Positions 38,625 to 50,594 of a DNA stretch of 64,000 nt are shown piece after piece (position 1 is the first letter of the stretch; every line of letters begins with the position of its first letter). A program made the translations under genes and the position numbers. This DNA is from an uncultured Verrucomicrobiae bacterium (GTDB lineage: Bacteria > Chlamydiota > Chlamydiia > Chlamydiales > Rhabdochlamydiaceae), in assembly GCA_963818965.1 (NCBI GenBank), contig CAWFUG010000012.1, forward strand, positions 51,383-115,382, read 5' to 3'. The notes under the pieces were generated by a model that was not told the DNA's origin, made no database searches, and saw nothing but the letters and a program-made list of their open reading frames with translations.

Positions 38625-40016
38625 TTAGGTCATCTCTTGACCGTCACTGGATTTTAGTCTTAAAAAGATAAACGCTGATGAGCAAACAATACAACCCATG
38701 ACGAGAAAAGCATAGCGGAATGGAATGGGGTCATTGAATACAAGCTGATGATCCCAACCCACAAAAAATTGTAGCACCAGCGCGCTCAGCGTGATTCCCA
38801 AACCCATTGAGAGCTGTTGTAATGTACTAGAAATACTCGTTGCATGGCTCATCTCGACTTCGGGCACATCTACGTAATACAAAAGATTCATCCCCAAAAA
38901 CTGCAATGAAGCGATTACTCCATTAATAAAAACTAACGACACAATAAAAGCCGCATCAATTTTTGTGATTAACGAAAAAGAACTTATGGTTACACCTGTT
39001 AGTAACGAGGTAGTAGCCAATATCTTTCGGAATCCCCATCGATGTAAGATGCTTCTATTCATGAACTTCATACTGATCATCCCTACCGCCCAGCCACATG
39101 TGAGAAGCCCTGAATGAAACGGCGACACCCCGTAACCAATCTGAAAAAACAACGGCAGTAAAAAAGAGAGCCCACTCAGACCCAATCGACTCCACAAATT
39201 GCCCACTGCAGCAACCAAAAAGGTACGTAGGGAAAACAGCTTTAAATTGAGTACCGGATATTTGGTTTTTCGATAATGCCCATAAAATATCAAAAAGCCC
39301 AGTACTGATCCTACAAAAACCAAGATCCTTAAAAGTCTCGATACAGCGACTGTATCCACTGCTTCAAACACAAAAAAAAGTCCTGCTAAACTCGAGCCAA
39401 AAAGAAGAAAACCTATCGCATCAAACGGACGTAAGAGTTGACTTTTGGTGTTTTTCATATAACGGAGCGCAGTGAAAACGCCTAAAAGCCCAATGGGAAC
39501 ATTGACGTAAAAAATCCATGGCCACGAATAATAGGTGGTAATAAATCCACCGATCACAGGACCTAATAGAGGGCCGATCAATGGAGGTGTCGTCATAAAG
39601 TTTGTAGCGCGAACCAATTCAGATTTGTGAAAAGTGCGCAACATGATTAAACGTCCCACTGGCATCATAAATGATCCGCCCACCCCCTGTAAAATACGAG
39701 AGATCACTAACTCTGACAGGGACTGGGCCATTCCACATCCGATAGAACTGAGGGTGAATATAGATAATGCGAAAATAAAAGTTTTTTGCGTTCCCCATCT
39801 ATCTGCCACCCAACCGCTGATAGGAATAAATAAAGCGAGACTTAATAGATAACTGGTCAAAGCCAACTTTAACTGAACCGGATCGACTCCAAAGCTTAAA
39901 GCCATGTCAGGGATGGCTGTACCAATGATCGTAATATCCAATGTCTCCATGAACAAAGCTGTAGCAATGATCCATGGAATGACTTTTTTAGCACTGGTAT
40001 TATCGTTTACTGTCAC
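38625..40016 (-). CDS. DHA2-type MFS transporter
   Basis: FMETLDITI, SGWVADRWG, WIFYVNVPIG. Confidence 0.9.
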   Translation of the reverse strand: MTVNDNTSAKKVIPWIIATALFMETLDITIIGTAIPDMALSFGVDPVQLKLALTSYLLSLALFIPISGWVADRWGTQKTFIFALSIFTLSSIGCGMAQSLSELVISRILQGVGGSFMMPVGRLIMLRTFHKSELVRATNFMTTPPLIGPLLGPVIGGFITTYYSWPWIFYVNVPIGLLGVFTALRYMKNTKSQLLRPFDAIGFLLFGSSLAGLFFVFEAVDTVAVSRLLRILVFVGSVLGFLIFYGHYRKTKYPVLNLKLFSLRTFLVAAVGNLWSRLGLSGLSFLLPLFFQIGYGVSPFHSGLLTCGWAVGMISMKFMNRSILHRWGFRKILATTSLLTGVTISSFSLITKIDAAFIVSLVFINGVIASLQFLGMNLLYYVDVPEVEMSHATSISSTLQQLSMGLGITLSALVLQFFVGWDHQLVFNDPIPFRYAFLVMGCIVCSSAFIFLRLKSSDGQEMT

Positions 40017-40102
40017 AAAAATCCCCTTCCCAAAGGAAGAACGTCTTGATACAACGTCGTTACATAAAAATTAACAGGCTCTAATGTCCTGCTAATTTTA
40101 TT

Positions 40103-40175
40103 TATACCACAGTCGGCTTGAAACTTCGAATTTGGACAGCGCGAAAGCTCCTGCGATTGAGGTGGAAGGGGTATA
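40103..40175. repeat. Deleted palindromic element (arm type F)
   Basis: TATAC-22 nt-ATTTGGACAGCGCGAAAGC...GGGGTATA. Confidence 0.65.
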
Positions 40176-40186
40176 GATCCTGCTTG

Positions 40187-40666
40187 TCAAATTCCCGATT
40201 CTTCAAGGTGTTTCGGTATCATCCCCTCATTTAAAGATAAGTCTAGAGAGGCTTTCGTCCATGAGGAGGGTGACACAAAGTCATGTATCGTAATGGCGAT
40301 GTCGGTGAGAGGACAGCAAATACGGGTTACAGCAGGATGATGGTAAAATACATTTGTCTGGGGTCCTAGTTCAAATAGGGCGGGATCTTCACTATGAAGA
40401 AAGATCTTCTTTCCAGTTGCGATCGCAAACCCCAACTCGAGATGCGTTCCGTATCCTCCAGGGAGAAGGACAACGACAAAATCAGTTTTTGAAATACCTT
40501 CTAATTCGAGAACCGCGACTTCCCGCAACCGCTCTTTGCTGACCGATTTTACGCTTCCATGTACTGTCCAGTCATAGGCAATTTCGTGGCCTAGCGTCTT
40601 CAGCGCCTCTCTCACTAGATTATGGGCGGCCATTCTCAAAAGAGATGTTGCAATGTAATATTTCAT
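40187..40666 (-). CDS. Nucleoside 2-deoxyribosyltransferase-like protein
   Basis: YYIA, YDWT, GTHLELGFA. Confidence 0.65.
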   Translation of the reverse strand: MKYYIATSLLRMAAHNLVREALKTLGHEIAYDWTVHGSVKSVSKERLREVAVLELEGISKTDFVVVLLPGGYGTHLELGFAIATGKKIFLHSEDPALFELGPQTNVFYHHPAVTRICCPLTDIAITIHDFVSPSSWTKASLDLSLNEGMIPKHLEESGI

Positions 40667-40763
40667 GTAACTCCTAAAGCTCGTAACGGTTCAATGACTT
40701 GCATTGAAAAAATAAGTCTATCGATGATCAGAAATTTTTCCTAATCAAAAATTGAAAAATCGG

Positions 40764-40872
40764 TACCATGCTCCGCGCGCTATAGGAATGGTGCGAGGGG
40801 GTATAAAAACTGTTCTTTTCTTTGGAGGTAAATTTTGGTAAGGTCCACATGTTATACCCCGCGCGTTTAGAA
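40764..40872. repeat. Two degenerate type B fragments
   Basis: CCGCGCGCTATAGGAATGGTGC...GGGGTATA (ending 40805) and TATACCCCGCGCGTTTAGAA (from 40853). Confidence 0.65.
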
Positions 40873-40916
40873 AGGCTAGGTCATTGTTATGGAAATGGGG
40901 AAATAGGATTGGACTC

Positions 40917-42320
40917 ATGATTTCTGCACTTAACAATTTGAACTTTTATATATTTGCTGCAGTGATCGGACTTTTACTTGGCGTGGGTATCTATAAAACA
41001 AGACATATCCAGTTAGAATCCTCATATCTTTTTGCAGAAAGAAAGACCTCCTGGGGTGCTCTCACTGCAACCTTAGTAATGACTGAGTTCAATAGCGCAA
41101 CGCTCCTCTCTTTTTGTTCTTTGGGATATGTGGCTGGATTTTGGGCGCTCATTTTACCTGCCATTTTTCTTATCGGACTCTTGTTTTATGCCTTAACGGT
41201 AGCAGAAAAATGGAAACGTTTCGATGGCTTTTCTGTCGCAGGGTTTTTCAGAGAGAAATATGGAAACAAGATAGGTGTTTTTGCAAGTTCATTGCTTTTG
41301 CTATCGATGCTTGGATTTAGCGCCGCTTACATTAAATCTCTTGCCCTTTTATTTCAGCCTCTTTTCCCTCAGCTTAATCTTTGGATTATCAGCGCAACTC
41401 TTGTAGGAACAATCCTAGCAATGATGCTAAAAGGCGGTCTTACTGCCATTATCCGTACGGATATATTAAGCTTTTTCATGACATTGTTATTTATACCTCT
41501 GATGATTTTTTTTGTTTGGAACCTGCCAACAGAAGAAATTCTTCCATTTTCTTTAGCGCAAGGGCAGGAAATTTTGCCGATCCATTTTGTCTTTTCTTTG
41601 ACTATTTTAACGATGTTTACCTATATTTTAGCCCCTTGGTACGGACAAAAAATTTTTGCTGCTCAATCTGCTAAGACTGCTTACTGGGCAGTTTTTTCAG
41701 CAGCAGTTTTTGTCTTTTTCTTGTACGGAGCAGCGATCTTTGCAACAGCTCTTCTCAAACAAAAGGGAATAGAATGTTCTTCTGCCGAGCAAGCTTTGCC
41801 ACAATTGATTAATCAATTCTTCCCGCTAGGGTTTAAAGGTTTCGCTTTTGCGATCCTCTTCACTACTTCAGCGACCACCTTGACGGGGGTCTGGAGTGCC
41901 ATGACGGCAATGCTCATAGGGGATTTTCTTAAACCAAAAATCGCCAGTCGCAATCGACCTATTTGGATAACAACATGTTTTGCTGTGCTTTCTTACCTTT
42001 TAGCTAATTCCTTAGTCGACCATGTTTTTGATAAGCTGATTTTAGCTAACATTCCTGTAGCGGCCCTCTCTTTTGGATTGCTTGCGGGCTTTTATTGGCA
42101 GAAAGTAACCCGCCTCGGCGTCTATTTAAGCATCATAGTGGGATGTATGTGTGGAGTAGGTTCCTACCTCCGATTCGGCGAATCAGGAGGGTACACCTGG
42201 TATTGGGCTGTCTATGGAATCCCGCTTTCATTTTTGGCTGGAGTTATAGGCTCTTACGGAAGTTTAAAGCTGCGGAATCGATACAATAGCGATCTCCCGT
42301 CGGTGGAGGGCCATCTTTAA
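40917..42320 (+). CDS. Sodium:solute symporter family protein
   Basis: Multi-TM protein, GGLTAIIRTD motif. Confidence 0.75.
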   Translation: MISALNNLNFYIFAAVIGLLLGVGIYKTRHIQLESSYLFAERKTSWGALTATLVMTEFNSATLLSFCSLGYVAGFWALILPAIFLIGLLFYALTVAEKWKRFDGFSVAGFFREKYGNKIGVFASSLLLLSMLGFSAAYIKSLALLFQPLFPQLNLWIISATLVGTILAMMLKGGLTAIIRTDILSFFMTLLFIPLMIFFVWNLPTEEILPFSLAQGQEILPIHFVFSLTILTMFTYILAPWYGQKIFAAQSAKTAYWAVFSAAVFVFFLYGAAIFATALLKQKGIECSSAEQALPQLINQFFPLGFKGFAFAILFTTSATTLTGVWSAMTAMLIGDFLKPKIASRNRPIWITTCFAVLSYLLANSLVDHVFDKLILANIPVAALSFGLLAGFYWQKVTRLGVYLSIIVGCMCGVGSYLRFGESGGYTWYWAVYGIPLSFLAGVIGSYGSLKLRNRYNSDLPSVEGHL

Positions 42321-43380
42321 ATAGATCTCCAAGATGTCCATTGCACCGACTGCATTTAGCTTCCTTACCTGAAGAAAAAGGGTTCCATTTTGATTCAAGG
42401 GTTACGTTTTCAGGACAAATAGGAGCCTTAAAACTGGGCCATCCAGTGCCCGAGTCAAACTTTGCCGCTGAACTGAAAAGAGGAAGGGCGCAACCAGCAC
42501 ACTCATAAATGCCCGCCTTTTTGTTGTCGAAATAGGCATTTTTAAAGGGAGCTTCTGTTCCCCCTTTTCTTAAAATCTTAAATTGTTCGGGCGTGAGTTT
42601 CTCTTTCCATTGTTCTTCTGTCAGAATGAGTTTTTTTCCATCAAATCGATAATTTGAAGGGCAATCGCTAATTTTTTGTAAGGAAATACAGGCCCCCTTT
42701 TCGATCGTGGAGTCCCGGGGCTTTGACGCGCTCAAATTCGCAATTCTTGACCGGGCGCAGGATAAGAGAGAAATTTTGGATGAGCCCCACACTTCTTTGA
42801 GTCTTTTATCCCTTCCACAACGCATTCGATAAAATTTATATTTAATCGGGTTTTTTTTATAATATTTCTGGTGATATTCTTCGGCAGGGTAAAACGTGTT
42901 TATAGGCAGGATTTCTACTAAAATAGGCTTTACTTGATTCGCTTTAATTAACTCTTCTTTTGAGGCTTCTGCTTCCCTTTTTTGGGTGTCTGTCGAATAA
43001 AAGATCACTGGGCGGTATTGATCTCCGGTATCGCAAAATTGCCCGTCATTACGTGTGGGATCAATATTATGCCAATAAAAATCTAGCAATTGAGCATAGG
43101 TGACTTTTCGGGGATCAAACACTACACGTACAGATTCTAAATGGCCAGTTCCTCCTGCAGACACTTCCTCATAGGTCGGATTTTTAGTATTTCCACCAGC
43201 ATATCCAGCAGTAGTAGATATCACCCCTGGGACTCGATCAAAATCATGCTGAAGACACCAAAAACATCCACCTGCGAAAATCGCTGTCTCCGTGTTTTCG
43301 GAACTAAATAAATTCGAAGTCATTAAAAACATTCCAATGACAATCTTGACAAACAATCTAGGATATGAGAATACGATCAT
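42244..43380 (-). CDS. msrAB: Fused methionine sulfoxide reductase MsrA-MsrB, probably exported
   Basis: FAGGCFWC, AEEYHQ, SGTGWPSF, RYCIDS; exact start uncertain. Confidence 0.92.
   Translation of the reverse strand: MIVFSYPRLFVKIVIGMFLMTSNLFSSENTETAIFAGGCFWCLQHDFDRVPGVISTTAGYAGGNTKNPTYEEVSAGGTGHLESVRVVFDPRKVTYAQLLDFYWHNIDPTRNDGQFCDTGDQYRPVIFYSTDTQKREAEASKEELIKANQVKPILVEILPINTFYPAEEYHQKYYKKNPIKYKFYRMRCGRDKRLKEVWGSSKISLLSCARSRIANLSASKPRDSTIEKGACISLQKISDCPSNYRFDGKKLILTEEQWKEKLTPEQFKILRKGGTEAPFKNAYFDNKKAGIYECAGCALPLFSSAAKFDSGTGWPSFKAPICPENVTLESKWNPFSSGKEAKCSRCNGHLGDLFKDGPPPTGDRYCIDSAALNFRKSL
42682..42764 (-). repeat. Half palindromic element (arm type E) in frame in the MsrA-MsrB linker
   Basis: Minus strand TATCC-22 nt-ATTTGAGCGCGTCAAAGCCCCGGGACTCCACGATCGAAAAGGGGGCCTGTATTTCC. 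Confidence 0.88.
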
Positions 43381-43409
43381 AATCTTGTTATTAACGCATG
43401 AAGTGGGCA

Positions 43410-44777
43410 ATGTCAATATCAAATTTCTATTCTCTTGTAGTTATTGGAGCGGGCGCCGGAGGGCTTGTCGTTGCAATTGGATTTGCAAAAGCTGGTAAAA
43501 AGGTTCTCCTTATCGAAAATGGGAATTATGGCGGCGACTGCACAAATTTCGGATGTATTCCAAGTAAAACGCTCATTGGTCTTGCTGAGCATCAAAAAAA
43601 AGACCTTTCTTTCGTGCGTCAAATTGTCCAGGAAGTCAGGGCTCATGAAGAACCAGTATCACTAAATAAACTCGGCGTCGAAACATTAACAGCACAAGCA
43701 TCTTTTCTTGAACCTCACGTAATTCTCGCAAAAGAGAAGTCTGGAAAAACGGTTCAAGTTCAGGCCAAAAAAATTGTAATTGCGACGGGTTCTTCTCCTC
43801 AAATCCCTCCTATTCCAGGTCTTAATGAAACCCCTTTTCTGACTAATGAAAGCATTTTCAATCTCGAACAGATACCCAAGAGTTTGATAGTTTTAGGAGG
43901 AGGACCCATTGGATCTGAGCTTGCGCAAGCATTTCAGCGTTTAGGTACTGCGGTCCATTTGATTCACTCACATTCAGAAATTTTAGCGAGAGAATCAAAA
44001 GAAGCTAGTAACATCCTTATTGAACAGTTTAGAAAAGAGGGGATGACTCTTCATTTAAATTCTAAAATTGAGAGGATTGAATATAAATCCTCTAGCTTTA
44101 AGGTGGTATTATCTGACAAAACTGTCGAAGCGGAAAGGCTTCTTGTCGCTACAGGTAGAAAACCTCACATAAACGAGCTTCAATTAGAAAAAGCGGGAGT
44201 GGCTTTTACTGATAAAGGAGTGATTGTAGATGCCTTTGGAAGAACCTCTCAAAAACATATCTTTGCCATTGGCGATGCTACAGGGCCTCCCTTTTTTACT
44301 CATCTGGCGGAGAGTCGAGGTCGAACTGTATTAACAACGTTGCTGCTATCTCCCTTTTTTAAAAAGAAAATCGATCGACAAGCGATTCCCCGTGTTACTT
44401 ACACTGATCCTGAGATTGCTTCCATTGGCTTATCAGAAGAGGAAGCTTTTGAAACATATGGGCAAAAAAAGATTGCGGTGTACTTAGTTCCTATGTCGGA
44501 AGTCGACCGCGCCATTACGCAGGGCCGCACTGAAGGTTTTGTGAAAATTGTCACCAAGCGGTGGAGTAGCCATATTTTAGGCGCTACCATCATTTGCCCT
44601 CGTGCGGGGGAGATGCTCAGCGAGATCTCTCTTGCTATGTTCGCCAAAATTCCTTTGCGTAAATTGGCTGGATTAATCCATCCCTATCCGACGTATAGCC
44701 TTGCCATCCGTCGTGCAGCCGACAAGTGGCTCTCTCAAACAATCCTCTCATTTATTAGGACGTTATGCAAAAAATAA
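43410..44777 (+). CDS. Pyridine nucleotide-disulfide oxidoreductase (mercuric reductase-like)
   Basis: GAGAGG, GGDCTNFGCIPSK, GGGPIG, HPYPT; no C-terminal Cys-Cys. Confidence 0.88.
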   Translation: MSISNFYSLVVIGAGAGGLVVAIGFAKAGKKVLLIENGNYGGDCTNFGCIPSKTLIGLAEHQKKDLSFVRQIVQEVRAHEEPVSLNKLGVETLTAQASFLEPHVILAKEKSGKTVQVQAKKIVIATGSSPQIPPIPGLNETPFLTNESIFNLEQIPKSLIVLGGGPIGSELAQAFQRLGTAVHLIHSHSEILARESKEASNILIEQFRKEGMTLHLNSKIERIEYKSSSFKVVLSDKTVEAERLLVATGRKPHINELQLEKAGVAFTDKGVIVDAFGRTSQKHIFAIGDATGPPFFTHLAESRGRTVLTTLLLSPFFKKKIDRQAIPRVTYTDPEIASIGLSEEEAFETYGQKKIAVYLVPMSEVDRAITQGRTEGFVKIVTKRWSSHILGATIICPRAGEMLSEISLAMFAKIPLRKLAGLIHPYPTYSLAIRRAADKWLSQTILSFIRTLCKK

Positions 44778-45463
44778 AAAAATGGATCCCTCTCTTGGTT
44801 ATCGTCATTTTAATGCTGATTGCCTATTTTTCAGGAATCCTTCATTACTTTTCCTTTACCAATCTACAGATGCATAGACATACAATTGTTGCCTTTGTTA
44901 CCGAACATTGGGTTGTATCCCCACTTCTGTTTATTTTTCTCTACATCATTGTTGCCGCCCTCTCCCTTCCAGTGGGTGTTTTTCTTTCGCTTCTGGGAGG
45001 ATTTCTATTTATTCAACCTTTTAGCACTCTCTATATTGTAATCGGAGCTACGATCGGAGCTAGTCTTATTTTCTTAGCGGCAAGGACGGCCATTGGAGAT
45101 TTTTTAAAACAAAAAGCGAGCAGGTTCCTGCCGAAAATCGAAGCCGGTTTTCGTGAAAATGGGGTGAGTTATCTTCTTTTTTTACGTCTAGTCCCCCTCT
45201 TCCCTTTCTGGCTGGTTAATTTAGCTCCAGCCTTCCTGGGCATCCCCTTAAGAACATTTGTTTGGACCACTTTTGTCGGAATCATTCCAGGAGCTTTCGT
45301 ATTTGCCCAAGCTGGAGCGGGTCTTGGGGCCATTTTAGATTCTAATCAAGGATTTTCAATCGGTGGTATTTTTAACTGGCAGGTTAAAATTGCCTTGATT
45401 GCACTGGGTGTTTTTGCTCTAATCCCTATTTTGGTTAAAAAAATACGAAAAAATGCTCGATAA
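44765..45463 (+). CDS. TVP38/TMEM64 (DedA/VTT) membrane protein
   Basis: LRLVPLFPFWLVN signature. Confidence 0.9.
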   Translation: MQKIKKWIPLLVIVILMLIAYFSGILHYFSFTNLQMHRHTIVAFVTEHWVVSPLLFIFLYIIVAALSLPVGVFLSLLGGFLFIQPFSTLYIVIGATIGASLIFLAARTAIGDFLKQKASRFLPKIEAGFRENGVSYLLFLRLVPLFPFWLVNLAPAFLGIPLRTFVWTTFVGIIPGAFVFAQAGAGLGAILDSNQGFSIGGIFNWQVKIALIALGVFALIPILVKKIRKNAR

Positions 45464-45613
45464 TCGTCTTTTCTTGCTTATATCTACCCCCCTCTTCGAC
45501 AACTCAATCCCGGGGCTTTGGCGCGGCCCTACGGCCAACTTTTGAGTCCACTTGGGTATACGTTTGCAGCTCTTGTCTTTTTAACAACTGTTCTTCGGAT
45601 TAAAAATTTTTGA
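45453..45613 (+). pseudogene. Possible remnant of a CDP-alcohol phosphatidyltransferase (YnjF-like) gene
   Basis: MLDNRL start overlapping the DedA gene end and a TFAALVFLTTVLRIKNF* end, separated only by a half element. Confidence 0.4.
45481..45560 (-). repeat. Half palindromic element (arm type D)
   Basis: Minus strand TATACCCAAGTGGACTCAAAAGTTGGCCGTAGGGCCGCGCCAAAGCCCCGGGATTGAG...GGGGGGTAGATA. Confidence 0.85.
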
Positions 45614-45637
45614 AACAGGTGGGCCGGGCGGAGTATA

Positions 45638-46060
45638 TCATTGTAGCGAGCGGATTGACTTTAAGACTTCTTTGCGAGAAGCGTCGACTTGCATGCTTAC
45701 CCGATTGGCAGCCTCTTCACTCGTTTTTAGATTATTAGCCTCTTCGCCCCATACCGCGACAAGCTTTTGGATTGTTTTGGGCACTGGCTCTGGCATTAAC
45801 TGGGAAAGATCGCTGGCTAGAGCAATATATCCCCAACCGAGAAAGGGATTCCCTAACATATTATCCGATTGGAAATAGGCATAATTAACAACCACTTGCA
45901 ACTGCCCTAAATTTTTTAGGATTTCAATCCCGGCCACTCTTAAGTTTTGGTTTTTTTCAGAGATCTCAGATCGCCATGCAGTGAAAACAAAAGCAGAAAA
46001 AATAGTTAGCAGGCTAAAAACAGATATGACATTATTGAATTGTGTTTTAAATAACTTCAT
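45638..46060 (-). CDS. Hypothetical protein with N-terminal TM; last gene of the MNIO operon
   Basis: Starts 3 bp after the doxX-family stop, same strand. Confidence 0.7.
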   Translation of the reverse strand: MKLFKTQFNNVISVFSLLTIFSAFVFTAWRSEISEKNQNLRVAGIEILKNLGQLQVVVNYAYFQSDNMLGNPFLGWGYIALASDLSQLMPEPVPKTIQKLVAVWGEEANNLKTSEEAANRVSMQVDASRKEVLKSIRSLQ

Positions 46061-46063
46061 TAT

Positions 46064-46534
46064 TCAAGGCATCTTCTTGGTTTTGTTGGCTCCTGTAAGC
46101 CAATAATCGAAAGATATTTTGCCAGGGCCAAAACAAAATACAATCAGCACAGCATAGATAAAAAGAAAGGCTGTATCACTAAAAAAGAGAGAAGGATCGA
46201 GCTTTGAAATCAATGTGGATAGGGCTTCGCGGCTTGCTGTTATATAAGCAATGCATAACACAAAGAACAGAGGGATCGCGACAATACGTGAAAAAAGACC
46301 GAGCAATAATAAGCTTCCTCCAAGAAACTCTGTGCTACCGGCTAAAAGAGCATTAAGATAGGGCAGCGGGATACCGAGCGAGTGAAAATAATCAGCAATG
46401 GAGCTTAAGTGAGAGAGCTTTCCTATGCCAGTAATTAGAAATTGATATCCCCAATATAAACGAATAATGAGAAGAAGAAAAGAAGACATGGAATTGCCTA
46501 TTGCCGTCACCTGTGTCCAGAAAAGTTTAAGCAT
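46064..46534 (-). CDS. DoxX family membrane protein
   Basis: RLYWG, GKL, EFLGG..LLLGLFSR, GPGKISFD. Confidence 0.9.
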   Translation of the reverse strand: MLKLFWTQVTAIGNSMSSFLLLIIRLYWGYQFLITGIGKLSHLSSIADYFHSLGIPLPYLNALLAGSTEFLGGSLLLLGLFSRIVAIPLFFVLCIAYITASREALSTLISKLDPSLFFSDTAFLFIYAVLIVFCFGPGKISFDYWLTGANKTKKMP

Positions 46535-46543
46535 ATGTACTCC

Positions 46544-47380
46544 TTAATAATTTTCAGAAAAACTAAGCCAATCTCTTAATGAAATAATCTGAAACCATTC
46601 AACAATGTTATCGCAAGCAGTAAGTTGCGGAATGAGATCAATAAGCTTAGCTCCTTCTTGAAAGCGGCTTAACAATTCAAATCGAGCCTTTGAAATTTCT
46701 TCGTAAAAATCTTTTTCGTTTTTGCGAAAAAGAACAAAAGATGCTTTTTTACGTTTCTTTTTAATTTGAGGGAGATCGTGCGTTTGCCAGTAAATAGGTG
46801 GATGTTCTAAAAGTTGAGTGCGAAAGGTGAAAAAATCGACATCGAATTCAAAAAGCATGACAAAAGGTTGCAGATACAATATTTCACTACCGGCCTTGTC
46901 GAGTGTATTAGGATCGATTTTAGGCAGTATTTCGGTGAAAATAAGACGCTCATAAGCTAGATCGAGAGAAGCGAGCGCCAAAACTAAAGAAGCATTTTTT
47001 TCTTGATAATTCTTTTTAAGCCAATCTGGAATGTTCGATCCAATTCGAGAGAGAAACCAGTCCTGCGGAGGGCAATCTAAGAGATACGGCTCGGCGATCA
47101 AACGATTAAACTCCTCATATCCAAAAAGATGAACGAGGCTAGGGTAAAGTTCTTGTATGATTGTGATCAGTCGCCACCAATATTGTTGATGGTAGATTCC
47201 CATCCTCTCTTCACTTTTCAATTGAGGGCTAGATGCAATTCGCCCGCGAATATCCTCTATGAGATGACCTTGGTAGATAGGAAGATTTGCTGAGTCACAT
47301 TCTTGAAGAGGAGAAGTGATGATCTTTGCAAACCATGTTTGCATATCCAGAAGTGTGTTAGGGCAAGAAGATTCAATCAT
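46544..47380 (-). CDS. DUF2063 (HvfC/BufC-like) MNIO partner protein
   Basis: ERMGIYHQQYWWRL...YPSL N-terminal pattern; overlaps the DUF692 gene. Confidence 0.8.
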   Translation of the reverse strand: MIESSCPNTLLDMQTWFAKIITSPLQECDSANLPIYQGHLIEDIRGRIASSPQLKSEERMGIYHQQYWWRLITIIQELYPSLVHLFGYEEFNRLIAEPYLLDCPPQDWFLSRIGSNIPDWLKKNYQEKNASLVLALASLDLAYERLIFTEILPKIDPNTLDKAGSEILYLQPFVMLFEFDVDFFTFRTQLLEHPPIYWQTHDLPQIKKKRKKASFVLFRKNEKDFYEEISKARFELLSRFQEGAKLIDLIPQLTACDNIVEWFQIISLRDWLSFSENY

Positions 47381-48200
47381 AGATAACTTGCTTTTGGTAT
47401 GCTTTGGCCTTCAGTGCCTCTTTCCAGGTATCTTCAAAAGAAATAAAGCGATCATCCCATTCTAGGAGAGTTGAGACCCCTTTTGTCTTTGGGTAAACTT
47501 CCTTATAAATCTCCCAAACTTCATCTCGAACCGGATAATCGTGTGTGTCCAAGATATAACGTTCATAATCGCTATGGCCAGCTATATGGATCTGAACAAC
47601 GCGATCGAGTGGTAAATTGGAATAATAGTCTTTGGGATCATATCCTTCATTACGGCTTGAAACGTAAATGTTATTCACATCAAGCATCATTGAGATATCT
47701 GCTTTCTCAACAACGGCTGTATAGAATTCCCATTCAGTCATCTCATCATTTGTGAAATTGGCATTGGAGGAAAGATTTTCTAGAGCAAAGGGAATTTCTA
47801 AGAAATCTTGGATGATTCTCGCTCTTTCCGCGACGTAATTGGCAACTTCCATCCTTCGCGGCAAAGGCAGAAGATCGTGGAAACGGGCTCCTGGTAATCT
47901 GCCCCAGCACAAGTGATCTGACAGCCAGGGGGTTTTTGTTTTAACAGCAAGAGCTTTTAATTTTTTTAGATACTCCCAGTCGAGAGGAGCTGCGCTCCCA
48001 ATGGCAAGGCTAACCCCGTGCATAACCACGGGGTAGCGATCTAGAATCCTTTCTAAATTTCTGAGTGGCATTCCGCCACCCATGAAATTTTCGCTAATGA
48101 TTTCGAACCAATCAACAGGGGGCCATGCCGCAAAAATTTCTCTAAAATGGACGGGTCGTAAACCGACGCCAATTCCTAAATTGGGAATTTGTTTGCACAT
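47373..48200 (-). CDS. DUF692 multinuclear non-heme iron oxidase (MNIO)
   Basis: GVGLR, EIISENF, HGVSL, SDHLCW, LEN, LDVNN, IHIAGH, DTH, LLEWD. Confidence 0.93.
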   Translation of the reverse strand: MCKQIPNLGIGVGLRPVHFREIFAAWPPVDWFEIISENFMGGGMPLRNLERILDRYPVVMHGVSLAIGSAAPLDWEYLKKLKALAVKTKTPWLSDHLCWGRLPGARFHDLLPLPRRMEVANYVAERARIIQDFLEIPFALENLSSNANFTNDEMTEWEFYTAVVEKADISMMLDVNNIYVSSRNEGYDPKDYYSNLPLDRVVQIHIAGHSDYERYILDTHDYPVRDEVWEIYKEVYPKTKGVSTLLEWDDRFISFEDTWKEALKAKAYQKQVIYD

Positions 48201-48264
48201 GGCATGACCCTAAATGGATGGTTAAAAATCTATATAACACTTCAGTGCTTTTTGAAGCATTATT

Positions 48265-48531
48265 TCACATGCCACTTTTGCCTTTACAGCTACTATGACC
48301 AGTACAGTCGCTTTTACCCGTGCAACCGTTTTTCCCTTTGCACCCCGTTTTTCCTGTGCAATCACTCTTACCTGTACAGCCACTTTTGCCCTTGCAGGTG
48401 GTTTTTGAGCTGCAGCTACTTTTACCTGAGCCTGAAGCACCCATTCCGTTTGTTGAATTGGAACAGCCAGAAATAGCGCTGCCAATTATAAGCCCTGCCA
48501 TAGCCAATTTAAGAACATTTGTTGCCTTCAT
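48265..48531 (-). CDS. Cys-repeat lipoprotein; putative MNIO-modified RiPP precursor
   Basis: AAAGGAG RBS, lipobox-like ISG-C23, Cys at residues 40, 46, 52, 58, 64, 70, 76, 82. Confidence 0.85.
   Translation of the reverse strand: MKATNVLKLAMAGLIIGSAISGCSNSTNGMGASGSGKSSCSSKTTCKGKSGCTGKSDCTGKTGCKGKNGCTGKSDCTGHSSCKGKSGM
48271..48426 (-). repeat. 18-bp period degenerate tandem repeat encoding GKxxCx units
   Basis: GKSSCS SKTTCK GKSGCT GKSDCT GKTGCK GKNGCT GKSDCT GHSSCK. Confidence 0.85.
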
Positions 48532-48574
48532 AGTGTTAGATCTCCTTTAATTTCGATCTTCCAACTGATAGATA

Positions 48575-48597
48575 AATAAAAGATGTTTTATTGTCAA
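48575..48597 (-). promoter_or_regulatory. -35 box with adjoining inverted repeat upstream of the MNIO operon
   Basis: TTGACA (48592-48597, minus strand) and AATAAAA-GATG-TTTTATT (48575-48592). Confidence 0.45.
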
Positions 48598-48740
48598 ACT
48601 ATGGTTGTGAAGACTGTTGTATGAGCTTAGCAATGAGCGATGTCCATCCAGTTTGATGAACAATGCCATCGCTACGAATCATGAAATGAAAATAGAATTA
48701 GATCGCAAGAATTGAGGGTTATCTATCAGGCAGTATAACT

Positions 48741-48789
48741 TATACCCAAGTGGACTCAAAAATTGGCCATAGGGCCGCGTCAAAGCTCC
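48741..48789 (+). repeat. Type D element arm supplying the stop of the 604-aa gene
   Basis: TATACCCAAGTGGACTCAAAAATTGGCCATAGGGCCGCGTCAAAGCTCC. Confidence 0.85.
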
Positions 48790-50594
48790 ACCTTCTCCAG
48801 AAACTCTCCCCAGGGAGTGTCTTCGCAATCGAGTTGGAATTGATCCATGATTCTATTTCGATCTTCTTCGGGGCAGTCGGCGGAGAATTTAAAGTTTGTC
48901 AGTTCTAAATCTGTATTATAATCGAGGAACCCTAAGTTTCCGCTAACTTTAAAATGAACTAAAAATGATGCTTTCAGCTTCTCTTCTTTGACGATGTGGA
49001 AAGATTTGATGTGATCGACGCAGAATCCCACTCTATCCGCTTGGATGTCATACCGAGCCAGAACATCCCGGCCTAAGATCAAACGATGATCCACAGAATT
49101 ATTGGGATGCAATCCAGGACATAAGACTAATTTAAAAAACCAGAAACACATGGAAAATCTATAGTAGATTAGCGCGTTTAATAAGGGGAGCGTTGGAATG
49201 AGTTCTCTTTTTTTCTGTAAATTACCTACGCACTGATAAAAACCGATTAAAAGATCAGCCACAGCTTCCCCATTTTTCGATTTAAAATCTGAGTTACTCA
49301 AGAGGAGAGTGGAGATCAATGATTCGTACGGTCTCATCCGATTGAAAAAATCGGAAAGAGCCGTTTTTTTCCCCATCTCTTCAAAGAAACGGGAAAACCT
49401 GGCCTTTTCCGATTGTTTTTTAAATGCTTTTTTGAGGCATTTGGCGATAGAGCATTTGAGTTTTTTTTCCTCTGCTTTCTCTATAAACATTTTCTCTTGG
49501 AATAATTTGCGTTGCTCTTCTACGGAAAGGGGGGAGGAGAGCTTCAGCCTCTCTTGCATTTGAGCGACGAACCATTCGAAAAAATAATCAGATCGATCCG
49601 CTTCTTGAGAGATCCCTACGCTTTCATAATTGGGAATAATCAGATTTTCTGCATTGAAACAAATCGAGTTTTTTGGAGGAGGATCGTCAGAATAAAAACT
49701 ACGAAAAGTCATTGCAAATTCTCCTGCATTGGGGAAATAAGCAACTGGTGTCATAATGCTCTCACCATTGCCAGTAGGTCGAATGCTCATTCCGTGCTCT
49801 TCAAACCCCTGTTTAAATGAAAATCGCGTCTTTAAGAGGGATGCTCTCTTCCTCTCCATAGGAGATCCATCGATATGAAGCCTTAGCTTACTCCGGATTA
49901 TGTCCCCCTTATCTCCTCCTGCCTTTTGAAGGAGAATTCCCCCCTTTTCTTTCTCCATTATCTCATACAGGAGCTGTGCTTGTGGTTTTTCTAACTTTTC
50001 GTACCGATTCAAAAACTGAGTCGGATTCGCCTCTTTGGAAAAGTCGCCGAGAAACTGGTGCTCTTCGAGTTCAGACAATAATTCTGCAGCTTTTGTCACT
50101 CGCGCTAAAATCCCTGAACATTCCAGTGCATGCGTATAAACAGTGGCGATGGAGGTTTTAATTTCCTCTTCGGAAAGGGAGGTCTCTCCCACCGTTTTTA
50201 CAATCTGATCTTTTAATTTCTTTTCCCATTCTGGATAAGGAAGCACAGAAATATCGATAAAGCAAAGGAATGAGGACAAGGGAACGCGCACAAACTTTAA
50301 AGCGGGACTGCTCTTCAAGGGTTCGATACGTCTTGAAGAGGCGCTTCTCGATCGACGCTCCCGCTTACAACAAGATTCACTCGCCGCTAAATCTTTCAGG
50401 AATAGTCGAGGTATCTGATGGGATGAAGCAGCAGGCGTTATTTTGTCAGATCTGGGGGAGACAGAACGGGTCCGTAGCAAAGGACGCTCTCCTGGTGCGG
50501 TCGTAGTCTGCTCTGGGGAATGCTCTCTCGAGCTCTCTCGAGATGTCGGAGTTAGAATTATTGTCGTCGTCGTGGTCGGCGTAACACCTGCCAT
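48780..50594 (-). CDS. Hypothetical protein with Ser/Thr/Pro-rich disordered N-terminus (candidate effector)
   Basis: 604-aa ORF with GGAG RBS; no family recognised. Confidence 0.7.
   Translation of the reverse strand: MAGVTPTTTTTIILTPTSRESSREHSPEQTTTAPGERPLLRTRSVSPRSDKITPAASSHQIPRLFLKDLAASESCCKRERRSRSASSRRIEPLKSSPALKFVRVPLSSFLCFIDISVLPYPEWEKKLKDQIVKTVGETSLSEEEIKTSIATVYTHALECSGILARVTKAAELLSELEEHQFLGDFSKEANPTQFLNRYEKLEKPQAQLLYEIMEKEKGGILLQKAGGDKGDIIRSKLRLHIDGSPMERKRASLLKTRFSFKQGFEEHGMSIRPTGNGESIMTPVAYFPNAGEFAMTFRSFYSDDPPPKNSICFNAENLIIPNYESVGISQEADRSDYFFEWFVAQMQERLKLSSPLSVEEQRKLFQEKMFIEKAEEKKLKCSIAKCLKKAFKKQSEKARFSRFFEEMGKKTALSDFFNRMRPYESLISTLLLSNSDFKSKNGEAVADLLIGFYQCVGNLQKKRELIPTLPLLNALIYYRFSMCFWFFKLVLCPGLHPNNSVDHRLILGRDVLARYDIQADRVGFCVDHIKSFHIVKEEKLKASFLVHFKVSGNLGFLDYNTDLELTNFKFSADCPEEDRNRIMDQFQLDCEDTPWGEFLEKVEL

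Follow-up and report, generated by a model that had tools for sequence, protein, structure and literature searches.

A bufferin-2-related MNIO gene cluster with a putative lipid-anchored, repeated-cysteine precursor in a Rhabdochlamydiaceae genome

The stretch analysed here, 64,000 nucleotides of contig CAWFUG010000012.1 from an uncultured bacterium of the Rhabdochlamydiaceae (the window), contains at 45638..48531 five tightly spaced genes, all on the minus strand, that encode an 88-residue precursor peptide, an MNIO (DUF692) iron enzyme, a DUF2063 protein, a DoxX protein and a protein of 140 residues. On balance, this cluster is probably a system related to bufferin 2, within the Cys-Lys captophorins, that makes a lipid-anchored copper-binding peptide. 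In the proposed mechanism, MNIO and the DUF2063 protein would convert the core cysteines of the precursor to 5-thiooxazoles in the cytoplasm; the peptide would then be exported and lipidated at Cys23, and the tethered cysteine array would capture copper at the envelope. The first-pass annotation had recognised a cluster for a peptide made on the ribosome and modified after translation (RiPP) with the layout of bufferin clusters and a lipoprotein precursor in a chlamydial genome, which gene order, family models and the lipobox support; the membrane-anchored, multivalent metal-binding product that it proposed stands as the best reading of the sequence. A defence against host copper, also put forward there, is conjectural.

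The four-gene core order of bufferin clusters was defined in PMC12452194. As in the bufferin 2 system of Caulobacter vibrioides (bufA2B2C2; BUF_6/12Cys; models NF050166 and NF050167), the genes follow the order precursor, MNIO, DUF2063 and, where present, DoxX; BufB is the top MNIO model, an Asp residue appears at the Cys-Lys site of the enzyme, and the core is of the CKG type. The cluster also shares with that system the absence of a sigma gene, and lipoprotein signals occur in that family. The open reading frames confirm the limits and the one-strand linkage of the five genes; from the precursor to the 140-residue gene, successive genes are separated by 64 nt, overlap by 8 nt, and are separated by 9 nt and 3 nt. 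The model searches proposed earlier for the three conserved proteins (PF05114, PF09836 and DoxX) all gave scores above cut-off. The features are as follows.

48265..48531, minus strand: precursor gene, 88 residues; open reading frame with lipoprotein signal, Gly/Ser linker and eight-Cys core
48463..48531, minus strand: predicted signal peptide (residues 1-22) and presumed lipobox ISG-Cys23, with Ser at +2; by fit to a lipobox pattern
48277..48420, minus strand: core, residues 38-85, with eight Cys at period 6, the predicted modification sites; read from the sequence
47373..48200, minus strand: MNIO (DUF692) maturase of the bufferin type, 275 residues; PF05114, 323 bits
46544..47380, minus strand: DUF2063 partner (PME1, BufC-HvfC type), 278 residues; PF09836, 54 bits, cut-off 27
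46064..46534, minus strand: DoxX membrane protein (BufD/HvfX type), 156 residues; PF07681, 67 bits; HvfX model 75.8 against a cut-off of 80
45638..46060, minus strand: gene of the 140-residue protein; open reading frame with a single N-terminal hydrophobic stretch, without a Pfam or NCBIfam family
48542..48547, minus strand: AAGGAG ribosome-binding site of the precursor gene; read from the sequence
48592..48597, minus strand: TTGACA, 66 nt ahead of the precursor start, candidate -35 hexamer of a promoter of housekeeping type; function inferred

The precursor peptide and its family

An 88-residue precursor with a lipobox-like ISG-C23 and eight cysteines at a period of six had been described from the sequence, and all of this was found, the cysteines being at positions 23, 40, 46, 52, 58, 64, 70, 76 and 82. 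The probability of eight cysteines at an exact period of six arising by chance is 4.6e-9, and none of 200,000 shuffles reproduced it. The accompanying description of eight xxCxGK-type units applies strictly to six of them, the other two being SSCSSK and SDCTGH. The six-residue period, likewise, is exact as a spacing of cysteines but is not the underlying repeat; by the self-identity of the precursor, which is 0.73 at a lag of 18 residues versus 0.55 and 0.53 at lags 6 and 12, the actual repeat is a unit of 18 residues with three cysteines (CKG-CTG-CTG). The Cys-Lys sites within these units are Cys46, Cys64 and Cys82. Calculated for the unlipidated peptide from Cys23 to Met88, the monoisotopic mass is 6278.65 Da.

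Judged from its codons, the precursor gene is real and its core is under purifying selection. Compared with the gene of locus L185 (MNIO identity 88%), the final 45 codons have nine synonymous and no amino acid differences; compared with L119, 17 synonymous and five amino acid differences are found over 42 codons. ISG-C23 we take to be a lipobox on the basis of a PROSITE-type pattern. All 13 aligned homologues keep Cys23, and a lipobox is present in the precursors of all eight members of the MNIO clade described below; the linker between lipobox and core is freely variable among homologues. Lgt, LspA and Lnt are encoded in the genome, each above its curated cut-off.

Two AlphaFold2 runs on the precursor gave mean predicted local distance difference test (pLDDT) values of 46.5 and 45.6, which are low, hence no fold was read from them. 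In the ESM Atlas the best score of the precursor was 0.87, to unnamed clusters with low recognition, a lead only; its exact sequence is not in a collection of 15 billion proteins, whereas that of the MNIO is. Collagen-like matches were discarded, as they are far under the cut-off and reflect the Gly at every third residue. A basic helical tail (KKRE-A-A type) ends most homologues and is absent from the window precursor (48265-48276) and from those of L185, L119, L002, L113 and L125; given these tail-less clusters, the tail is not needed for cluster retention.

Eight homologues of the precursor were found at E<=0.001. On the BufA2 model (NF050166) the window precursor scores 17.1 bits, with a cut-off of 60, which places it outside BufA2 by that model; its eight homologues score 10-31 bits, and four controls (P0096, P0120, P0134 and the precursor of L132) score 67-80 bits. 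A profile was then made of 67 Buf2-like cores encoded upstream of 68 MNIO genes of Acidobacteriota and Verrucomicrobiota, in which the commonest spacing is 6,6,7,6,6. Against this profile the window core scores 67.8 bits (composition correction off), a value that none of its shuffles reached (at most 55.4 for 2000 full shuffles and 65.8 for 2000 with the cysteines fixed). Because the core outscores all 4000 shuffles, it is homologous to Buf2-like cores, even though the precursor is not a BufA2 member. The 19-residue, three-Cys unit of the Acidobacteriota and Verrucomicrobiota cores would then correspond to the 18-residue unit of the window, and the precursor probably derives from a Buf2-like core that lost its folded scaffold and expanded the 18-residue unit.

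A profile of the subfamily matched 344 proteins at E<=0.001 among 1.84 billion. Among the best 150 of these, seed sequences included, Buf2-like spacing (6,6,7-9,6,6) occurs in 88, canonical BufA2 spacing in 6 and other patterns in 37; a run of at least five Cys at period 6 is found in 19, ten of them with a lipobox. One protein, P0096, has seven Cys at period 6 and nevertheless passes the BufA2 cut-off with 74 bits. By this tally and by P0096, strict six-residue arrays have arisen repeatedly in the family. The repeat count, which had been thought to set the cluster apart, loses that value, given the true BufA2 protein P0096 and precursors of the EGKCG type with up to 58 Cys (PMC12452194). Another lipoprotein, P0034, combines eight Cys at period 6 with a fused thioredoxin domain; this fusion suggests a tie between such arrays and envelope thiol-redox proteins.

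Within the Chlamydiota, 67 of 400 genomes have a match to the subfamily profile; the match is strong (E<1e-17) in six only, among them the window and several seeds. The usual chlamydial precursor (L003-L006, L081-L110, L165, L168 and L172) is a longer helical protein that carries five or six Cys (6,6,7,6[,6]) and ends in a basic tail; these precursors are often two in tandem, and some have N-terminal GCG-rich extensions. Unlike most other chlamydial precursors, that of the window is a bare repeat.

The MNIO enzyme and comparison with known systems

Among five NCBIfam MNIO models, the best for the window enzyme is BufB (NF050167), with 294.9 bits and a cut-off of 310; the scores and cut-offs for the others are 222 and 360 (HvfB), 58.6 and 600 (ChrH), and 34.4 and 325 (MbnB). 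The comparison with these four enzymes that had been called for, made here by model search, comes out in favour of BufB. The His, Asp and Glu motif residues of the enzyme align with those of structure 3BWW, and its motif E247-W-D249-D250 corresponds to E-R-D-F in that structure. In Cys-Lys enzymes such as BufB2, an Asp replaces FonB-Phe250, beside the catalytic Asp249 (PMC13097082). The window MNIO appears to carry this Asp, its position being matched by motif.

The relation between this motif and the precursor was examined in 146 distinct MNIO loci, 14 of which had other or unread motifs. The 120 Asp-type loci comprise 94 with a CxG-xx-C precursor, three with GxCG, one tie and 22 for which none was found by pattern; the 12 E-R-D-x loci comprise 11 with a GxCG precursor, none with CxG-xx-C and one without a precursor. 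As the loci are kin, this tabulation serves to check consistency and carries no statistical weight.

Counts for related loci refer to the best 80 of at least 577 MNIO loci. Among the matches listed, the twelve closest are 70-84% identical to the window MNIO, and 11 of these are labelled Chlamydiae; the next 68 belong to Acidobacteriota or Verrucomicrobiota, at 55-59% identity, and in 67 of these 68 nearest non-chlamydial loci a CKG-type precursor lies ahead of the MNIO gene. A protein 95.6% identical to the window MNIO bears the name Rhabdochlamydiaceae. A quick tree with SH-aLRT (approximate likelihood-ratio) support only was made of 94 of 147 distinct sequences, including 15 of the 68 non-chlamydial loci; its long branches are flagged and the characterised enzymes are not among its sequences. 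In this tree the window falls in a clade of eight rows (support 99) nested in a nearly all chlamydial clade of 65 rows (99).

Other chlamydial MNIO loci were seen in the course of this work. The contig of L002 is labelled Acidobacteriota, and its MNIO and precursor nest within the chlamydial clade; it is possibly mis-binned. A second chlamydial clade, at 35-40% identity and with the E-R-D-x motif, includes L111, L115-L118, L120, L121, L123, L124, L126, L136 and L149; its precursors are long, with Sec signals and EGKCG, EGSCG or GSCG motifs, i.e., these are oxazolin-type clusters in chlamydiae. Genome G304 carries five divergent MNIO copies (L127-L131), one of them containing an internal TGA; a short precursor with only 2-3 Cys precedes each.

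The differences from bufferin 2 concern the precursor. The window core has eight Cys, all at spacing six, whereas BUF_6/12Cys precursors have six or twelve with spacing 6,6,7,6,13; the window precursor is without the C-terminal scaffold segment or the final long-spaced Cys (scaffold disulfide), and four of its eight sites are Cys-Thr. In Caulobacter Buf2 the loss is 4.03 Da for each of the four central Cys, and a disulfide probably joins the outer two; buf2 is copper-induced, a single Cu is bound by bufferin 1 (2N2S shell as best fit), and bufferins slowed killing by Dictyostelium (PMC11626156). As in the Cys-Lys group of captophorins, the window has the MNIO and PME1 (DUF2063) pairing, multiple Cys-Lys sites (three CKG) and, by motif, the Asp.

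The closest parallel for the anchor is lipo-NedA of Neisseria dentiae, described in PMC13056109, where DAG-RiPPs are named and lipidated and modified NedA is demonstrated. Both have a lipoprotein signal on a repeated-Cys MNIO substrate, with a proposed role as a membrane copper holder; by sequence, the DAG-RiPP features of the window are the lipobox on an MNIO-adjacent precursor and the three lipoprotein-processing genes of the genome. NedA carries three EGKCG (Lys-Cys) motifs, in contrast with the eight CxG units and Cys-Lys-type enzyme of the window. The example of lipo-NedA implies that modification and lipidation of one peptide are compatible; together with the lipoprotein signals predicted in about 16% of Buf2 precursors (PMC12452194), it also means that the lipid anchor does not distinguish the cluster, as had been proposed.

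Oxazolin (HvfABC), fontiphorin (FonABC) and the EGKCG captophorins likewise combine an unstructured, many-site repeat precursor (seven sites in FonA) with MNIO, PME1 and DoxX genes; unlike the oxazolin/EGKCG group, the window has no EGKCG, has Asp and not Phe after the catalytic Asp, and falls well below the HvfB cut-off. The oxazolin product was reassigned to 5-thiooxazole (PMC13097082), which weakens the oxazolone-thioamide chemistry that had been offered as one option. The CxxxxC precursors (cluster X of PMC13056109 and the CxxxxC family of PMC12452194) have core spacings of five where those of the window are all six, and chryseobasin (ChrH) and methanobactin (MbnB) are set apart by model scores far below both cut-offs. 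Hundreds of unclassified MNIO precursors, with 1-18 Cys, are listed in PMC12452194.

In cultured chlamydiae (Protochlamydia, Parachlamydia, Neochlamydia and Waddlia) the same MNIO-DUF2063 pair is present, undescribed, in the supplements of PMC13097082 and PMC12452194. In the Parachlamydiales rows of the latter that were searched, five of eight have MNIO and DUF2063, with no precursor family assigned; the supplement of PMC13097082 holds 16 chlamydial MNIO-PME1 pairs, and the string CTGKSDC is not in it. No study of a chlamydial MNIO product was found in the full-text literature, a scope that most subscription journals fall outside.

Accessory genes, regulation and genome setting

A DUF2063 homologue follows MNIO in 79 of the best 80 loci, and DoxX lies within 5 kb of it in 57; the DUF2063 protein had no match among solved structures. 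DoxX is dispensable in Caulobacter (PMC11626156), and both DoxX and the 140-residue protein are probably accessory to the cluster. The latter has no Pfam or NCBIfam family and no relative among solved structures; it had been described as a membrane protein, of which one N-terminal hydrophobic segment was found. It has 13 homologues, at 45-92%, and in the ESM Atlas it scores 0.97-0.98 to unnamed, mostly Pseudomonadota clusters. Its gene follows DoxX in L185 and precedes a different precursor type in L184, and in two GenBank records of metagenome-assembled genomes its accession numbers are consecutive with those of MNIO, DUF2063 and DoxX. It was not found in MNIO loci L001-L150; in ten other Chlamydiota genomes that have it, it is far from any MNIO in all ten (G392 has none listed), and no MNIO was seen in three further loci, L183 (a 1.2-kb contig), L186 and L187. 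The gene was at one point considered a pure passenger (present in none of the best 80 loci and in one of 128 genomes of the family), a view that was revised because it is linked in near relatives. It is best called a lineage-limited accessory and not a core part; as a feature that distinguishes the cluster it is not supported; it is kept beside the cluster in near relatives but in none of the 150 other MNIO loci. The linkage in two gene orders makes a helper role possible.

No ECF (extracytoplasmic function) sigma or anti-sigma gene adjoins the cluster in the open reading frame and Pfam survey of the window. This had been taken as distinctive; however, sigma genes occur in Buf1 but not Buf2 clusters, so that clusters without them were already published (PMC12452194). 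The sole match to the sigma70-ECF model in the 88%-complete genome is a 564-residue frame, which by its size is probably the primary sigma factor. The TTGACA hexamer recurs upstream of the precursor in L185, L119 and L001 (at 66 nt in two of them and 67 nt in one) and at 83 nt in L139; with the window included, five of nine clade loci have it (counts by eye for L119, L001 and L139). It has no clear -10 box, and a consensus promoter scan did not detect it. Upstream of eight clade precursors no common operator was seen beyond this hexamer. A copper-type P1B ATPase is encoded in the genome, above cut-off.

PF05114 is present in 139 of 401 Chlamydiota genomes, including 16 of 89 in the family of the window and 45 of 46 in another; genome G355, of the same genus, has only the E-R-D-x MNIO type. 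The guanine-plus-cytosine (GC) content of the operon is 0.409 versus 0.475 for the genome, and the operon is part of a low-GC stretch of ~11 kb (window about 39000-50000, GC 0.37-0.43) that also holds a major facilitator superfamily transporter, a nucleoside deoxyribosyltransferase-like protein, a sodium:solute symporter, MsrAB, a MerA/RclA-like flavoprotein and a VTT protein. It is plausible that the cluster was acquired by transfer among chlamydiae. The sodium:solute symporter (window 40884-42320) has close homologues at 59-69% that lie 2-4 kb from MNIO clusters at L120, L123 and L133, each in a different chlamydial genome; in two of these genomes the MNIO is of the other type. A repeat resembling a miniature inverted-repeat transposable element occurs at 79 places in the genome; a full copy measures 168-170 nt and has long inverted arms with TATA at their ends. 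The operon is flanked by half-copies, at window 45484-45560 and 48741-48789, whose termini face it. A composite mobile element, suggested by a 53-nt inverted repeat exactly bracketing the operon, was rejected, as the repeat occurs at those 79 places and its termini face the operon and do not enclose it.

Weight of the evidence, alternatives and meaning

Several observations weigh against a bufferin-2-related, copper-binding product. The precursor is far below the BufA2 cut-off and the MNIO misses that of BufB narrowly; D249 and D250 were equated with the FonB positions through the motif and 3BWW. The residue after the core Cys is Lys at three of eight sites, Thr at four and Ser at one, and flanking residues control FonB turnover (PMC13097082). 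In two of the eight clade precursors the core holds no more than three Cys. Neither a regulator that responds to copper nor such an operator was recognised, the genome being 88% complete, and the MsrAB and MerA/RclA-like neighbours fit general oxidative or other-metal stress equally well. Finally, we infer every chemical step.

One alternative, which we consider unlikely, is a patterned modification in which only Cys46, Cys64 and Cys82 are converted and the Cys-Thr and Cys-Ser sites are left as thiols or in disulfides; this would yield a ligand with a period of 18 residues, either mixed thiooxazole-thiolate or disulfide-braced. The 18-residue unit, with one CKG and two CTG, agrees with it, as does the motif CTG[KR][SAT]DC, found twice in six of the eight clade precursors (which have 3 to 9 core Cys), and the Asp at the FonB-Phe250 site is modelled as contacting the substrate Lys (PMC13097082). 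On the other hand, all four central Cys are modified in Caulobacter Buf2 (PMC11626156), though the residues after those Cys differ in BufA2-type precursors (L132).

A non-copper role seems rather improbable as well; here the peptide, though modified and lipidated, would belong to a stress island and scavenge host oxidants or soft metals other than copper. The low-GC stretch with MsrAB and a MerA/RclA-related flavoprotein is in line with such a role, and MerC fusions connect some bufferins to mercury (PMC12452194); nevertheless, the characterised close relatives are copper-selective and copper-induced (PMC11626156), and these neighbours are not conserved, MsrAB homologues being near MNIO in two and MerA-like proteins in one of the best 80 loci.

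A fuller version of the patterned array is quite doubtful: a scaffold-free, lipid-tethered peptide in which every 18-residue unit would have one thiooxazole site and two that are thiolate or disulfide, acting as an outer-membrane multi-copper shield against a host phagocyte, with the 140-residue protein as dedicated helper.

Cysteines every six residues suit a disulfide ladder, and the precursor presumably bears some resemblance to chlamydial OmcA and to the 12-residue-repeat insect antifreeze proteins. An unmodified Cys-rich envelope lipoprotein, forming disulfide cross-links or a disulfide-laddered beta-solenoid and not an MNIO substrate, is suggested by these likenesses, by the 88 residues, lipobox and many Cys in a chlamydial genome, and by the seven of the 30 best profile matches that have no MNIO within about 1.5 kb, but it is very improbable, because the other 23 adjoin an MNIO, the precursor is directly ahead of MNIO in all eight clade loci and in L185, the core is homologous to Buf2-like cores, and no OmcA-type (Chlam_OMP3, PF03503, E<=0.1) or antifreeze Pfam match was found; genome-wide searches for the OmcA and OmcB families were also blank, but had no working positive control.

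For the bufferin-2-related, lipid-anchored system the gain is modest, since descriptions of this type of system, of its chemistry and of lipid-anchored forms date from 2024-2026. The new part lies in the precursor, a small chlamydial subfamily that current family models miss and whose 18-residue repeat is lipid-anchored and free of a scaffold, although the lipoprotein table of PMC13056109 may already list it. If this reading is true, it supplies a substrate for the chlamydial MNIO enzymes, which have been tabulated in publications without a precursor, and the short, regular eight-site peptide would allow a direct test of whether Cys-Lys enzymes modify Cys-Thr sites and of the copper load of a tethered array. 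Should the patterned shield be true instead, no earlier modified-peptide metal defence would have been shown in an obligate intracellular bacterium, and Cys-Lys MNIO enzymes would gain a new pattern of modification. As MNIO clusters are present in 139 of the 401 Chlamydiota genomes but in no genome of two other families (30 and 35 genomes), copper handling may differ between chlamydial lineages and their hosts.

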